Of a stretch of DNA of 64,000 nt, positions 39,483-49,059 are shown in pieces. Where the stretch lies: NCBI GenBank assembly GCA_049649785.1, contig JBARZG010000103.1, positions 2,243 through 66,242 of the forward strand. The letters are read 5' to 3'. The notes under the pieces are model-generated. The model did not search any database and was not told the origin of the DNA. It was given only the letters and a program-made list of their open reading frames with translations. Positions within the stretch are counted from its first letter, which is position 1, and every line of letters starts with the position of its first letter. A program made the translations under genes and the position numbers. The DNA is from Ornithinimicrobium sp. GTDB lineage: Bacteria > Actinomycetota > Actinomycetes > Actinomycetales > Dermatophilaceae.

Positions 39483-40505
39483 CTACTGCCCCCCGGCGGC
39501 GTACTGCGCCTCGACGCCAGCCTTGACCGGCTGCCACCAGTCTCGGTGATCCCGATACCAGTCGAGGGTCGCGGTGAGACCGGCGTCGAGGTCGGGGTAG
39601 ATCGGCTCCCAGCCGAGTTCTGAGCGTAGCCGGGAAGCGTCGATGGCGTAGCGCAGGTCGTGCCCAGCGCGGTCGGCCACGAAGTCGATGGCCGAACTGT
39701 CATCGCTGTGCCCGGCCAGCCGGAGCAGCGCGCGCACGATGTCGAGGTTCGACCGTTCGCCGTCGGCTCCGATCAGGTATGTCTCACCGATTACCCCCTG
39801 CTGCAGGATGGTCCACACGGCACGGGAATGGTCGGCCACGTGGATCCAATCGCGCACGTTGGCCCCGGTGCCGTAGACCTTGGCGCGCCGTCCGTCGAGA
39901 ACGTTGGTGATCTGACGGGGGATGAACTTCTCGACGTGTTGCCAGGGGCCGTAGTTGTTGGAGCAGTTGCTGATGGTGGCCCGCACCCCGAATGAGCGCA
40001 CCCAGGCGCGCACCAGATGATCGGCGCCGGCCTTGCTGGCGGAGTAGGGAGAGGAGGGCCGGTATGCCGTGTCTTCGGTGAACCGGGCCGGGTCCTCCAG
40101 CGCTAGGTCGCCGTAGACCTCGTCGGTGGACATGTGGTGAAGCCGCACGTCGTGCCGGCGGACGGCCTCCAGGATGGTGAAGGTGCCGACCAGGTTGGTC
40201 TGGATGAACGGCGCGGGGTCACGCAGACTTTGGTCGTTGTGCGATTCCGCCGCGCAGTGCACCACCGCGTCGTCGGGGCCGGTCAGGCCGCTGACCAAAC
40301 GCTCGACCAGCGCGGCGTCACAGATGTCGCCGACGACCACGTCTAGCCGCCCGGCCGGGAGGGGCTCCAGGGCCGCTGGCGAGGCGGCGTACGTGAGCTT
40401 GTCGAGGACAATGATCTGGGCGTCGGTGTGCCCGATGAGGTGATGGACGAGGTTGGCTCCGATGAAGCCGGCTCCACCGGTGACCAGGATGCTAGACATG
40501 TTCAC
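39483..40505 (-). CDS. rmlB: dTDP-glucose 4,6-dehydratase
   Basis: [13 protein letters not shown], catalytic YSASKA, and a typical RmlB C-terminus. Confidence 0.95.
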
Positions 40506-40537
40506 TGAGCCTAGCCAGCCAAGCGGGCCTAGGCTGA

Positions 40538-41416
40538 GTGACCATGCGAGGCATCATCTTGGCCGGGGGCAACGGGTCTCGCCTGCATCCCATCACGCTG
40601 GGCGCCAGCAAACAGTTGTTGCCCGTCTACGACAAGCCGATGATCTACTACCCGCTCTCCACGCTCATCCTGGCCGGAATTCGCGACATTCTGGTGATCA
40701 CCACCCCGCACGAGCAAGATCAGTTCGTCCGGCTGCTCGGGGACGGCTCACAGTTCGGCATCTCGCTCAGCTTTGCCAAGCAACCGAGCCCGGACGGGCT
40801 GGCGCAAGCGTTTCTGCTGGGCGAGGAGCACATTGCCGGGGATCGCTGTGCCCTCGCACTCGGCGACAACATCTTCTACGGGCCCCGGCTGGGCCGGCAG
40901 TTGCAGCGGTTTTCCAGCCTCGAGGGTGCCGCCATCTTCGCCTACCGGGTCAGCGACCCCACGGCGTACGCAGTGGTTGAGTTCGACGGCAACGGCAAGG
41001 CCCTGACCCTGCAGGAGAAACCGGCTCAACCAAGGAGCCCATACGCGGTGCCGGGGCTGTACTTTTACGACCATGAAGTGGTGGAGCGCGCCAAGGCGCT
41101 GCAACCCTCACCGCGGGGTGAATTGGAGATCACCGACCTCAACCGTGGATATTTGGAGCAAGAGCGCCTACAGGTCGATCTGTTGCCGCGGGGGACGGCC
41201 TGGTTGGACACCGGCACCTTCGACTCGCTGAACGCCGCCGCCAACTACGTCAGCACCCTCGAAGACCGGCAAGGGGTCAAGATCGGCGCCCCCGAGGAGG
41301 TGGCCTGGCGAATGGGCTTTCTCAACGACGACGAACTGGCAGCGCGGGCCGAGCCGCTGCTGAAGTCGGGCTACGGCGCCTACCTGTTGGACCTGATCGA
41401 GCACGATCGCTGGTGA
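40538..41416 (+). CDS. rmlA: glucose-1-phosphate thymidylyltransferase
   Basis: [18 protein letters not shown]...[16 protein letters not shown] is the canonical RmlA N-terminus. Confidence 0.95.
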
Positions 41417-41450
41417 GGACGGCCTGGAGGCTCGGGCAGAATGACCATCG

Positions 41451-46250: not shown

Positions 46251-47788
46251 CGGTTGCTCGCCAGAATCTCCGACATCTCGGCGAGCTTGTCCTCACCCAG
46301 GTCTCTGTCGGCATACCAGACGAAGCCGGCGGTCCGTCCGATCAACCGGTAGTGGTTGCCCAGTGCCGGCAGAGCCCAGTCGTAATAGCGGGGTTGGTCC
46401 ACCGTGACGAATGTCGGTCGCCGCTGCTCGATCCCGGCTGCGATGGCGGCCAGGCCACCGGGCTCGGTCTCATCGACGTATTCGGCCAGCCCGGTCAGGA
46501 ACATCTGGTGTCGGATGGGATTGGTCAGCCCACCCAACACCAGTGGTTGTGGGGCACCGATTGACTGCACGGTGACTTCTGGCCCGGCGGCAGCGAGCAT
46601 GGCCTCTGTCTCTGCTCGCATCGGCGCCAAGCTGTCCGGCGACTTGCTCCAGGCGGTGTAGCCGGCTGCCCCAGACACGACGAGGACGTATGCCGCAGCT
46701 AAAGCAGCCGCTGGATGCGCTGGTAGGTGACGAGCGAGAAAGGCTATGGCCCCTCCCACGCCGACGGCCGCCAACGGCACCACGAACATGGCATCGGCCC
46801 AGCCGTTGAAGACCCAGAGCGACCAACCCAACGAGGCCAGGGTGGCTGCGCCGGCGCCAACCACGGCTCGCCCGGCGGGGTCGCTGGAGCCACGAAACGA
46901 CCAGGCCAAGAGCAGCGAAAGCACCAAACCGCCGACCAGCAGCCACAGGGACCAGCCCCAGGCCTGCAGCATTTCGGTCGGTAGCGCCGTCAAGAAGGTG
47001 ATAAGGCCGACCTGATTGGTGCTGGTCGCATTCACGAAGAGAAAGCCCTCGAAGAAGGCGTCCAAGGCGCCGAATGCCGCGAAGTAGCCGACTACGAAGG
47101 CCGTGCCGAGGATCCCACCGAGGGCGAAGCGAGCCCAAGCTCGCACCGCACCGCGCCACAGCGTGCGCCGCGGCGGGACACTGGCGGCCACCAGTGCCGC
47201 CGCGAGGCATGGGAAGAAGGCGGGCTGCCAGGTGAGCGTCGCGAGGGCGGTGGCCACGCCCGCCCATCCCCATCGTCGGTGGGCGATGGCCAGCAGTGCA
47301 CAGACCACCAAGAGCACCATGGTGGTCTTCTCCCGTGGGCCTCCGCCGGCGTAGATCACCACGGCTCGCGAGGACAGCAGCGTGGCTGCTGCCACAACCC
47401 CGGCCACCCTGGAGCCGAACATGTCGCGGCCAAGGAAGTAGGTGAGCCACACCGTGAGAACGGTCAGGACCATCATCATGACGCGCATTGTGAGCAGGTC
47501 GTCGGTGCCAAGAGCCCGAGCGATCATCGCGCCGAATCCGGGCACCATATGTGCCAGCGGCCCGGCGCGGTTCAGCACCCCTTCATACGGAGGCACCCCG
47601 TCGGCGAACTGTTGCCCCGCGTAGGCGTAGAGGGCGCGGTCACGAGAGAGGACTCCACCGAATCCTTGCAGCAGAAAAACGGCGGCGCCGATAGCGGCAA
47701 CCGCGAGTCCCCACGGGTCGACTCGGCGCACTCGGGCGATCCTATAGCCCGTTTCACCCGCGCGCGCCTCGAGTCTTTGCGCCATCAT
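46247..47788 (-). CDS. polytopic GT-C-fold glycosyltransferase candidate (ArnT/PMT-like)
   Basis: More than 10 TM helices, ATGA overlap with the GT2 gene. The start is uncertain: ATG 47788 is preferred over 47869, which would overlap the divergent lldD-like gene. Confidence 0.65.
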
Positions 47789-47826
47789 GGAAGTCACCGG
47801 ATGACCCTTGTGACCAACGGAGATCG

Positions 47827-49059
47827 ATGATGAAGCGTCAGTTGCCCAAGCGCCGTGACTTGATGCCACTGATTCAGTTCAAGAAGGTGGAGTGGTCGGC
47901 GCGCCAGCGACGCTTGACGTCGGCGTTGACGATTGAGGATTTGCGGGTGATCGCCAGGCGGCGGACCCCCCGGGCTGCGTTTGACTACACCGATGGTGCG
48001 GCCGAGGGGGAGGTGTCGTTGGCCAGGGCCCGGCAGGCCTTTGGGGATGTCGAGTTCAACCCGTCGGTCTTGCAGGACGTCACGCGGGTGGATACCTCGC
48101 GCTTCGTGCTCGGGCAACGAGTGTCGTTACCGTTCGGGATTGCGCCTACTGGGTTCACCCGGATGATGCAGACCGAGGGGGAAGTTGCCGGGGCTACGGC
48201 GGCCGCGGCGGCCGGCATACCGTTCACCTTGTCCACGATGGGCACCACATCGGTGGAGGACGTCGCGACAGCCGCGCCCGATGGGCGCAACTGGTTTCAG
48301 TTGTACATGTGGAAGGACCGCGAGAAGTCGATGGCACTGGTGGAGCGTGCCGCCGCTGCCGGCTACGACACTCTGATGGTCACGGTCGATGTGCCGGTGG
48401 CCGGTGCCCGGCTGCGCGATGTCCGCAACGGGATGACGATTCCGCCGACGCTGACCGCTGGCACCGTGATCAACGCCATCCCGCGCCCCGCCTGGTGGTT
48501 CAACTTTTTGACCACAGAGCCCCTGGCGTTCGCCTCGTTGGACTCGTGGTCTGGGACGGTGGCCGACCTGCTCGACACGATGTTCGATCCGAGCGTGACG
48601 TATGAGGATCTGGCCTGGATCCGGGATCAGTGGCCGGGCACGGTGTGCGTCAAGGGTGTGCAGAGCGTTGCCGATGCCCGCAGACTGGCCGAACTGGGGG
48701 TCGATGCCATTATTTTGTCGAACCACGGCGGCCGGCAGTTGGATCGGGCGCCCGTGCCGTTCTACCTGTTGCCCGAGGTGGTGGGTGCGGTCGGGGCCGA
48801 CCTCGAGGTGCATCTGGACACCGGCATCATGTCCGGTCAGGACATCGTCGCAGCCATGGCCCACGGCGCGCATTTCACCCTGATCGGACGGGCCTACCTC
48901 TATGGGTTGATGGCCGGCGGCCGGGAAGGTGTTGACCGGGCGATAGAGATCCTTCGTGGCCAGATCGAGCGCACGATGCGTCTGCTCGGAGTGACGACCC
49001 TGGATGAACTCGAGCCCGGTCACGTCACCCAACTGCGGCGGCTGACACAGCGCGGCTAG
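47827..49059 (+). CDS. FMN-dependent alpha-hydroxy-acid oxidase/dehydrogenase (LldD/MftD family)
   Basis: 410 aa. [24 protein letters not shown], and a TIM-barrel FMN family pattern throughout. Confidence 0.9.

Follow-up and report, generated by a model that had tools for sequence, protein, structure and literature searches.

A sulfotransferase-containing, Arn-like gene module predicted to glycosylate the cell envelope of Ornithinimicrobium and its relatives

Introduction

Lipid-carrier side-chain glycosylation of the Arn, Gtr, Gac and PpgS/Rv3779 types controls surface charge, resistance to antimicrobial peptides and polymyxin, phage adsorption and antigenicity. Here we analyze an eight-gene locus in a 64,000-nt stretch of DNA from Ornithinimicrobium sp. 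(contig JBARZG010000103.1, positions 2,243 to 66,242; hereafter “the window”, whose numbering is used throughout), which encodes relatives of the enzymes of these systems together with a sulfotransferase. A preliminary description had placed the eight genes at 39483-47869 and had not recognized the set as a characterized pathway. Lists of the open reading frames (ORFs) agree with that placement, the interval being filled by the eight genes, and a limited full-text literature search, which covered few of the subscription journals, gave no characterized syntenic cluster. The same search returned no sulfotransferase-containing Arn/Gtr-like system, no sulfated wall polymers of Nocardioides and no bacterial N-sulfo sugars.

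Like the Arn system, the locus combines a DegT-family 4-aminotransferase, a GT2 glycosyltransferase that is homologous to ArnC over its full length, and a GT-C enzyme for which ArnT is the best structural match. In both cases the GT2 has an obligatory cytoplasmic partner that acts on the amino sugar, namely ArnA in Arn and the sulfotransferase in the present locus, and in other phyla the trio of GT2, sulfotransferase and aminotransferase is followed by pairs of small EamA/SMR-type proteins that resemble ArnE/F. The donors differ, however, since Arn uses a UDP-pentose derived from UDP-GlcA, whereas RmlAB would here feed a dTDP-6-deoxyhexose donor, and the aminotransferase is of the WecE and not the ArnB kind (439 vs 173 bits). 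Instead of ArnA (with its dehydrogenase/decarboxylase or formyltransferase domain) and ArnD, the locus has a sulfotransferase and a methyltransferase; the window version carries a MOP/Wzx flippase rather than ArnE/F, and lipid A cannot be the acceptor in its Gram-positive host. Because ArnA, ArnD and lipid A are missing, and because donor and aminotransferase are of other types, the locus appears to work like Arn without being an Arn system.

The GacI/GacJ/GacK/GacL proteins of Streptococcus pyogenes, like CsbB/GtcA/YfhO, GtlA/GtlB and Gtr, also use a GT2, a flippase and a GT-C enzyme to decorate a wall polymer outside the membrane. This combination defines multi-component transmembrane glycosylation, and GacK is a Wzx-type, not a GtrA-type, flippase (PMC8035078). 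These systems move unmodified GlcNAc, Glc or Gal from common UDP-sugars, with no dedicated tailoring of the sugar nucleotide and no sulfotransferase; the window GT2 carries its own transmembrane (TM) hairpin, so that a GacJ-like helper would be unneeded. In mycobacteria and corynebacteria, PpgS/Rv3779 place GalN on arabinogalactan, the amine being N-acetylated at the lipid-linked stage, by way of a flippase that has not been identified (PMC9671496). The likeness here is that of an actinobacterial GT2 and GT-C pair that brings an amino sugar to a wall glycan via polyprenyl phosphate. The mycobacterial system, in contrast, has a UDP-GalNAc donor and no aminotransferase, sulfotransferase or MOP gene, and the NCBIfam PpgS model gives the window GT2 just 22.8 bits against a cutoff of 370. 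We take the window host to be a non-mycolate actinobacterium, which makes arabinogalactan an unlikely acceptor.

The synthesis of enterobacterial common antigen (ECA) supplies two further relatives, namely WecE, the closest characterized homolog of the aminotransferase (1e-93), and WzxE, the best fold match of the MOP protein. In that pathway, however, Fuc4N is N-acetylated by WecD and is added by a cytoplasmic glycosyltransferase to a trisaccharide linked to undecaprenyl diphosphate (Und-PP); a polyprenyl-monophosphate sugar, a GT-C enzyme and sulfation are all lacking. The obligatory sulfotransferase sets the locus apart from every system that we found or know of. From the sequences and structure models described below, we consider it likely that these genes direct multi-component transmembrane glycosylation, in which a sulfated 4-amino-4,6-dideoxyhexose would be put on an extracytoplasmic envelope glycan.

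Results

Conservation of the gene set within Actinomycetota

Scanning one genome per species with an alignment of the GT-C enzyme gave 76 loci, all of them from the Nocardioidaceae and the Ornithinimicrobium/Dermatophilaceae group. A locus was called complete when GT2, sulfotransferase and DegT genes lay within 10 kb of the GT-C gene, and this trio was found in 67 of the 76. In six of the other nine, the contig breaks off within ~3.5 kb of the GT-C gene; the last three (L054, L076 and L079) are lone GT-C paralogs, which have several kb of flanking sequence on both sides. Two arrangements occur, with the GT2 gene on the GT-C strand in 44 loci and on the opposite strand in 23. In all 67 complete loci the GT2 gene is followed by the sulfotransferase gene on the same strand within 60 nt. 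The latter is contiguous with the DegT gene, again within 60 nt, in 60 of the 67, and a methyltransferase gene, where present (55 of 67), almost always comes directly after DegT (54 of 55). A MOP gene is found in 58 of the 67 complete loci, so that GT2, flippase and GT-C enzyme are all encoded together in these 58, besides the sulfotransferase and DegT; adjacent rmlAB genes are found in only five. Because the trio is kept in 67 of 76 loci and in two different arrangements, the gene set is a real functional unit, with a core of GT-C enzyme, GT2, sulfotransferase and aminotransferase, usually accompanied by the MOP protein. Adjacency of rmlAB, which is specific to the clade of the window, and the methyltransferase are accessory and do not define it. 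Core genes such as ychF, rmuC, ispH and xseAB surround the module in two loci of Nocardioides (L002 and L003), and relatives of RmuC and YchF occur in about 30 of the 80 loci compared.

In the window, five of the genes form a minus-strand operon in the order GT-C, GT2, sulfotransferase, DegT and, as the last gene, methyltransferase. With refined starts, they are joined by four 4-nt stop-start overlaps (ATGA, ATGA, ATGA and GTGA), which implies co-translation of the five. The sulfotransferase gene has ATGA overlaps at both ends, and the stop codon of DegT is overlapped by the GTG start of the methyltransferase gene (GTGA). In this clade of Actinomycetota as well as across phyla, the core always includes the sulfotransferase, which is translationally coupled. 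It had been described at the outset, along with the methyltransferase, as embedded in the operon; both are indeed present, but the sulfotransferase belongs to the core and is no embedded extra, and only the methyltransferase is accessory.

The sulfotransferase

The sulfotransferase scores 38.7 bits with Sulfotransfer_3 (cutoff 27) and 33.7 bits with Sulfotransfer_1 (cutoff 22), and has neither a TM segment nor a signal sequence. Its nearest solved structures are heparan-sulfate 3-O-sulfotransferases (5e-09, residues 6-173) and the N-sulfotransferase domain of NDST (5e-06, residues 5-114). Three motifs, GxQRxGTT, EK and RDPxxRxxS, are invariant in 36 orthologs (residues G9, Q11, R12, G14, T15, T16, E68, K69, R97, D98, P99, R102 and S105), and the core residues among them stay unchanged in 50 distant relatives as well. 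The Lys that is usual in the 5'-phosphosulfate-binding (5'-PSB) motif is replaced by Arg, and the Glu-Lys pair aligns with the EKTPSY segment of heparan-sulfate 3-OST-3A. The family scores, the motifs for binding of the 5'-phosphosulfate and the 3'-phosphate, and the catalytic base together point to a sulfotransferase that depends on 3'-phosphoadenosine 5'-phosphosulfate (PAPS). With 3-OST and NDST both among its relatives, the sequence fits N- as well as O-sulfation.

No N-acetyl- or formyl-transferase is encoded in 39483-47869, in agreement with the preliminary description, which had gone on to suggest that the amino sugar may stay cationic or be N-methylated. Here we differ, since the sulfotransferase is an invariant, coupled part of the core, which makes a sulfated (zwitterionic or anionic) product more likely than one that is just cationic.

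Proteins for lipid loading, flipping and transfer

The preliminary description had proposed a polyprenyl-phosphate GT2, a Wzx-like flippase with 12 TM helices and, as the product of 46247-47788, a GT-C enzyme, and all three assignments agree with our comparisons. The GT2 scores 98 bits with PF00535 and aligns virtually end to end with ArnC (residues 21-318 with 9hwj 9-308, 7.5e-37) and GtrB (residues 18-313 with 5ekp 24-319, 3.9e-33). Two hydrophobic segments at its C-terminus (244-273 and 275-309) correspond to the expected pair of TM helices. Its DDDLQN sequence aligns with 100-DADLQN-105 of ArnC, and D-x-D-L-Q-(N/D/H) is the metal-binding and catalytic motif of polyprenyl-phosphate glycosyltransferases (PMC12690121). 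In ArnC, R128 and R137 are the arginines that coordinate undecaprenyl phosphate (Und-P; PMC12690121). By positions counted by hand from the alignment, R149 of the window GT2 corresponds to R137, and F140 corresponds to R128, with K143 nearby. The score with the ArnC equivalog NF007986 (154 bits) falls well below the cutoff of 529. Homology thus suggests a polyprenyl-phosphate glycosyltransferase; the protein is related to ArnC but is no ortholog of it.

For the MOP protein, an AlphaFold2 (AF2) model with a mean predicted local distance difference test score (pLDDT) of 88.4 has about 12 TM helices in two bundles. The best fold match in the PDB is the Lipid III flippase WzxE (9g9p; E 6.7e-07, TM-score 0.63), followed by MurJ and MATE proteins, and all 50 listed Foldseek matches belong to the MOP superfamily (WzxE, MurJ, MATE). 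PF01943 (Polysacc_synt) is matched by 23 of 50 homologs (best 3.4e-10), and a protein of 100% identity is present in a metagenome-assembled genome (MAG) of Ornithinimicrobium sp. Given this homology and the precedent of GacK, a Wzx-type flippase in multi-component glycosylation (PMC8035078), the protein may well flip a lipid-linked monosaccharide.

The AF2 model of the GT-C enzyme, built on an alignment of 54 homologs, is a confident one (pLDDT 92.6, predicted TM-score (pTM) 0.91). Its 38 best Foldseek matches in the PDB all have the GT-C fold, comprising glycosyltransferases and the GPI-transamidase subunit U. These are led by ArnT (5ezm/5f15; E 5.7e-08, TM-score 0.58-0.60), with ALG12, AglB/STT3, AftD, AftA, DPY19 and Pmt4 following. 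In the model, an N-terminal polytopic module with a long first external loop, which carries juxtamembrane helices, precedes a C-terminal soluble domain. D50 lies right after TM1 (model helix 25-41, hydrophobic stretch 25-48) and is invariant in the 54 sequences; from its place, which is that of the catalytic acidic residue of GT-C enzymes, we infer a catalytic role. The motifs NRAGPLAH and GGPREKTT are likewise invariant among the homologs, whose annotations are inconsistent (GT39, GT87, RgtA or hypothetical). The start is uncertain: ATG 47788 gives 513 amino acids (aa), and orthologs with a length of 494 aa speak for a start ~19 codons downstream.

Two observations on the GT-C genes of other loci may be added. 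In 18 of the 67 complete loci (including L019, L021, L026, L033, L036, L039, L041, L047 and L051), two to four paralogous GT-C genes stand beside a single GT2-sulfotransferase-DegT cassette, the window having just one. Those compared are 31-46% identical, and this suggests that one lipid-linked donor serves several acceptors or linkage positions. In addition, Nocardioides-type loci have a 260-aa EEP (Endonuclease/Exonuclease/Phosphatase)-family gene near the GT-C gene, mostly ~50-100 nt directly upstream of it (33 of 80 loci, among them L002, at 9178-9960, L003 and L015-L051; 69-84% identity between loci). The gene may contribute to the system, for instance by encoding a phosphodiesterase whose substrate is the acceptor or the carrier. 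The EEP-family gene of the window (49209-50276) gave no tblastn match to it and was rejected as a homolog.

Sugar supply

Both rml products pass their equivalog models, RmlB with 441.9 bits for TIGR01181 (cutoff 365) and RmlA with 446.7 bits for TIGR01207 (cutoff 361). The RmlB translation also matches Pfam GDP_Man_Dehyd/Epimerase and contains a YxxxK motif (YSASK). The DegT protein scores 438.7 bits with NF008687, the model for dTDP-4-amino-4,6-dideoxygalactose transaminase (cutoff 375), compared with just 173 bits for the ArnB model; its matches in the PDB are WecE (4piw, 1e-93) and ArnB (9e-42). These results bear out the supply of dTDP-4-keto-6-deoxyglucose and the WecE-like aminotransferase that had been suggested earlier. 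The DegT translation holds an SFHETK motif, whose Lys we take to occupy the position of the lysine that binds pyridoxal phosphate (PLP) in DegT-family enzymes. The best-scoring model favors, but does not establish, a galacto-configured product; with TIGR02379 the protein reaches 384 bits, under the cutoff of 435.

The methyltransferase scores 54 bits with Methyltransf_11 and 52 bits with Methyltransf_23. Its best PDB match is MitM of mitomycin biosynthesis, which covers only the core that binds S-adenosylmethionine (SAM). A TylM1/DesVI-type N,N-dimethyltransferase is not supported, as the PDB matches are generic class I enzymes aligned over this core only.

The module in other phyla

A profile of the sulfotransferase orthologs yielded 519 clusters (at 50% identity) at E <= 1e-30. 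Seven distant relatives were inspected, and a DegT gene lies near all seven and an ArnC-sized GT2 gene next to five. P0394, from a Patescibacteria MAG (G+C 41%), is a natural fusion of 627 aa between a sulfotransferase and a WecE-like DegT protein, and its gene comes directly after that of a GT2 which is 44% identical to the window GT2 over the full length. In P0407 (L084, 3448-5472; 674 aa), the sulfotransferase is fused to an ATP-grasp/L-amino-acid-ligase-like domain. Besides a DegT gene, the same locus has two GT2 genes, a methyltransferase gene, a second gene of the sulfotransferase type, one resembling Orn/DAP decarboxylases and genes for polytopic proteins; it may represent a variant with N-acylation of the amino sugar by an amino acid. 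P0447 (486 aa) was considered as a second sulfotransferase-DegT fusion and rejected as a frameshifted gene call from a high-G+C contig, since it begins with the C-terminus of a GT2 and has long out-of-frame stretches rich in Arg and Pro. It is a caution for conclusions drawn from fusions.

A metagenome scan with a diverse sulfotransferase alignment gave 80 further loci, for which G+C is the only guide to taxonomy; some of the low-G+C contigs with the trio come from Tara Oceans samples. A full-length ArnC-like GT2 gene ends at most 120 nt upstream of the sulfotransferase start in 51 of the 61 loci with at least 1 kb of upstream sequence. Seventeen loci have at least 3 kb on both sides and range from 24 to 66% in G+C; 15 of these contain both GT2 and DegT genes, and 12 contain a large ORF with at least eight hydrophobic segments. 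The common order is GT2, sulfotransferase, two proteins of ~95-135 aa with 3-4 TM segments, an optional hexapeptide acyltransferase and DegT. When the small TM proteins were scanned, those of L083 and L090 matched EamA and those of L090 also SMR, and the pairs are probably ArnE/F-like flippases. L090 (122-10009, 33% G+C) combines the module with Wzm/Wzt genes for ABC export of O-antigen, a hexapeptide acyltransferase gene and an ArnE/F-like pair. It also encodes a 747-aa protein with 13 TM segments and a weak PMT_2 match, a Sulfotransfer_2 protein and a protein of the CysQ family (Inositol_P), which includes the phosphatase that recycles 3'-phosphoadenosine 5'-phosphate (PAP), the by-product of PAPS-dependent sulfation.

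The window proteins are 47-49% (GT2), 40-43% (DegT) and 34-36% (sulfotransferase) identical to those of the low-G+C versions, and the GT-C partners have no detectable similarity. With hhalign, the GT-C profile gave no significant match to the polytopic neighbors in L082, L083 and L084 (best 38% probability, in L084), and BLASTP of the window GT-C enzyme gave no match to the candidates in L090, L106 (two proteins) and L086. What makes these distant neighbors candidate GT-C enzymes is their topology and, for the 747-aa protein of L090, also the weak PMT_2 match. The window locus is the actinobacterial, MOP-flippase version of a widespread Arn-like module of GT2, sulfotransferase and aminotransferase.

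Discussion

Proposed pathway

In the pathway that we propose, RmlA and RmlB would make dTDP-4-keto-6-deoxy-D-glucose, as their equivalog-level homology indicates, and the WecE-like aminotransferase would convert this to a dTDP-4-amino-4,6-dideoxyhexose. The cytoplasmic, PAPS-dependent sulfotransferase would then sulfate the sugar, most likely at the nucleotide-sugar stage and at N-4 or at O-2/O-3, and the SAM-dependent methyltransferase, where present, would add a methyl group. Sulfation and methylation are placed here because of the coupling of the genes and the one natural fusion of sulfotransferase and aminotransferase. By homology, the GT2 would move the modified sugar onto polyprenyl phosphate in the inner leaflet, the Wzx-type MOP protein would flip the lipid-linked monosaccharide, and the ArnT-like GT-C enzyme would hand it to an acceptor outside the membrane, which may be a wall glycopolymer, a lipoglycan or a protein.

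Several points weigh against this pathway. All of the functions rest on homology, fold and gene context. The GT2 has Phe in place of one of the two Und-P-binding arginines of ArnC (R128). The MOP protein itself has no Pfam match at E <= 0.01, and MOP flippases usually carry oligosaccharides linked to Und-PP. For the GT-C enzyme, the Pfam score with PMT_2 (GT39/GT83) is 21.0 bits, under the cutoff of 26.1, and a profile of the 54 homologs found no GT-C chain among PDB sequences, so that the link to ArnT is by fold only; its donor and acceptor cannot be read from the sequence. The configuration of the sugar depends on a single NCBIfam model, the related TIGR02379 falling under its cutoff. No gene for PAPS synthesis or a PAP phosphatase was seen among the larger window ORFs that were scanned. 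Finally, the sulfotransferase may act on the lipid-linked sugar, given that its most constant neighbor is the GT2 and not the aminotransferase.

Alternative explanations

This last point amounts to an alternative, in which the GT2 would make polyprenyl-phosphate-linked 4-amino-4,6-dideoxyhexose and the sulfotransferase would act on it at the cytoplasmic face before flipping, much as dolichol-linked glycans are sulfated in Halobacterium. GT2-sulfotransferase is the most constant gene pair (67 of 67 actinobacterial and 51 of 61 metagenome loci), and is kept even where DegT is kilobases away, which speaks for such an order. Yet the enzyme has no hydrophobic segment, and its fusion partners in P0394 (the aminotransferase) and P0407 (an ATP-grasp ligase) are soluble. 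In L085 and L087, moreover, it adjoins DegT without a directly preceding ArnC-type GT2, which points to a nucleotide-sugar substrate. Because of these fusions and pairs, sulfation of the nucleotide sugar is favored, and we regard sulfation at the lipid stage as unlikely. The position of the sulfate is a separate matter. If the 4-amino group itself were sulfated, the resulting sulfamate would take the role that formylation by ArnA or acetylation by WecD has elsewhere, pulling an unfavorable transamination forward and masking the positive charge for the GT2 and the flippase, and it could be kept or removed outside the cell. The window operon has no N-acyl- or N-formyl-transferase, and the sulfotransferase is the sole modifier able to act on an amine in every locus, the methyltransferase being missing from 12 of 67. 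It is also translationally coupled to the aminotransferase, the two being fused in P0394, and counts the N-sulfotransferase domain of NDST among its nearest solved relatives, behind the heparan-sulfate 3-O-sulfotransferases, which outscore it (5e-09 vs 5e-06). ArnC, for its part, accepts only an N-formylated donor, so that masking of the amine matters in this class of enzymes (PMC12690121). Some distant loci carry hexapeptide acyltransferases that could N-acetylate the sugar; judged by eye from their N-terminal sequences, these seem to be O-acetyltransferases resembling WcaF. A sulfamidase-like gene is absent, and no bacterial N-sulfated sugar nucleotide came to light in the limited literature search; we know of none. 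On balance N-sulfation is a tentative proposal, less likely than not.

Other readings would change the pathway as a whole. If the locus served a polysaccharide pathway of the Wzx/Wzy type, the MOP protein would act as flippase for a repeat unit linked to Und-PP, the polytopic protein would be a polymerase or ligase and the GT2 an ordinary chain glycosyltransferase. MOP/Wzx proteins classically flip Und-PP-oligosaccharides, and the best fold match here is the Lipid III flippase WzxE. The remaining parts do not fit, however, as the scanned ORFs of the 64-kb window include no initiating phosphoglycosyl transferase, Wzy, Wzz or further chain glycosyltransferase. The polytopic protein matches ArnT, ALG, OST and Aft enzymes, with no Wzy or WaaL among the 50 listed matches, the GT2 is built like ArnC/GtrB throughout, down to the C-terminal TM hairpin, and in other phyla ArnE/F-like small flippases come after the GT2-sulfotransferase pair; we therefore consider this reading very unlikely. 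Still less credence can be given to a pathway in which the dTDP-amino-sugar genes, methyltransferase and sulfotransferase serve the tailoring of a small natural product. Branches to dTDP-4-amino-6-deoxyhexoses that include methyltransferases are characteristic of the sugar tailoring of macrolides and aminoglycosides, and the methyltransferase has MitM as its best PDB match, but only over the SAM-binding core. The neighbors are housekeeping genes, with no polyketide synthase, nonribosomal peptide synthetase, GT1-type or aglycone gene nearby, the transferases are membrane enzymes of the lipid-carrier type, and the Nocardioides modules of L002 and L003 sit among core genes.

Transmembrane glycosylation with a sulfated amino sugar is thus the reading that we prefer for the window. 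Its extension to other phyla, namely an Arn-like pathway in which a PAPS-dependent sulfotransferase is obligatory and a sulfated 4-amino-deoxyhexose, with the sulfate perhaps on nitrogen, is placed on envelope glycans, is more speculative, and we put it just below an even chance. Such a pathway would target wall polymers in Actinomycetota and probably O-antigen or lipopolysaccharide (LPS) in Gram-negative bacteria, and N-sulfation might replace the N-formyl and N-acetyl masking of Arn and ECA. To our knowledge, no bacterial route of lipid-carrier glycosylation with its own sulfation step has been described before, and, if the sulfate is N-linked, the pathway would also supply the first bacterial N-sulfo sugar nucleotide. 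If the proposal is correct, the sulfated amino sugar would be a new surface chemistry, zwitterionic or anionic and possibly a sulfamate, and a new class of substrate for carbohydrate sulfotransferases related to the heparan-sulfate enzymes. The trio occurs in soil Actinomycetota, Patescibacteria and low-G+C metagenome contigs, so the product could be a widespread envelope epitope that has been overlooked. The module is carried by cultured Nocardioides species, such as N. coralli, N. aestuarii (JCM 12125) and N. euryhalodurans, which makes the hypothesis testable, and the enzymes could serve in the synthesis of sulfated sugar nucleotides.

Layout and surroundings of the locus

The coordinates of the eight genes are given in Table 1. 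On the left side of the locus, rmlA is divergent from rmlB, and the flippase gene begins 34 nt past rmlA. At its 3' end it runs into the oppositely oriented methyltransferase gene, with which it overlaps.

Table 1. Genes of the locus, with assignments predicted from sequence and structure models
Gene or product	Position	Strand	Remarks
rmlB, dTDP-glucose 4,6-dehydratase	39483..40505	-	probable ATG start 40499; TIGR01181 equivalog
rmlA, glucose-1-phosphate thymidylyltransferase	40538..41416	+	probable ATG start 40544; TIGR01207 equivalog
MOP-superfamily Wzx-type flippase candidate, 428 aa, ~12 TM helices	41451..42737	+	AF2 model, WzxE fold match
class I SAM-dependent methyltransferase, 235 aa	42690..43397	-	GTG start 43397; ORF to 43445; Methyltransf_11/23
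WecE-like PLP-dependent dTDP-4-keto-6-deoxyhexose 4-aminotransferase (DegT), 380 aa	43394..44536	-	ATG 44536; ORF to 44557; NF008687
putative cytoplasmic PAPS-type carbohydrate sulfotransferase, 246 aa	44533..45273	-	ATG 45273; ORF 44533-45525; Sulfotransfer_3/_1
predicted GT2 polyprenyl-phosphate glycosyltransferase, ArnC/GtrB/DPMS type, 326 aa	45270..46250	-	full-length alignment with ArnC and GtrB
predicted GT-C-fold ArnT-like membrane glycosyltransferase with C-terminal extracytoplasmic alpha/beta domain	46247..47788	-	ORF to 47869; AF2 and Foldseek

The locus is surrounded by housekeeping genes (heme, cytochrome c and menaquinone synthesis, cytochrome bd, SbcCD). A horizontal-transfer island was considered and rejected, as the composition is normal (G+C 0.646-0.681 over 38-48 kb vs 0.62-0.69 for the whole window) and no tRNA gene lies within the window. 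A 554-aa ORF at 52399-54063 (-) was likewise rejected as a second GT-C enzyme; it has no Pfam match and no similarity to the GT-C family, and a counterpart is absent from the 80 related loci compared. This ORF adjoins a two-component system, consisting of a HisKA_3 kinase (51089-52264) and a LuxR-type response regulator (50436-51092).

On the other side, a DUF1499 gene (38939-39469, +) adjoins the cluster, as it does in the close relative L001. A DUF1499 gene is also found in the unrelated metagenome locus L086 (8404-8778; G+C 58.5%), which has the order DegT, GT2, sulfotransferase and a 615-aa membrane protein; the co-occurrence could be coincidence or a weak association.

Further away, a c-di-AMP (ydaO-type) riboswitch was found at 33902-34070 (+), with 55.9 bits for Rfam RF00379 (gathering score 38). 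The listed start (34058) of a gene for a secreted-type peptidoglycan hydrolase with NlpC/P60 and PG_binding_1 domains (34058-34891) falls within the riboswitch, which is probably the leader of this gene; a gene with an AMIN-like domain (35026-35832) follows. At 8878-9831 (-), a 317-aa ORF has a PemK/MazF toxin domain in its C-terminal third (residues 202-307), and its long N-terminal extension may be an artefact of ORF calling. This ORF has genes for cytochrome c biogenesis on one side and a prenyltransferase gene of the UbiA family (probably menA) on the other. The region 9579-14691, with genes of the UbiA, AMP-binding, enoyl-CoA hydratase and enolase-superfamily types, is a probable menaquinone biosynthesis cluster (likely menA, menE, menB and menC, the names being taken from the Pfam families). 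Upstream of it are hemD, hemB, a class-III aminotransferase gene (likely hemL) and ccdA/resB/ccsA-type genes for cytochrome c maturation.

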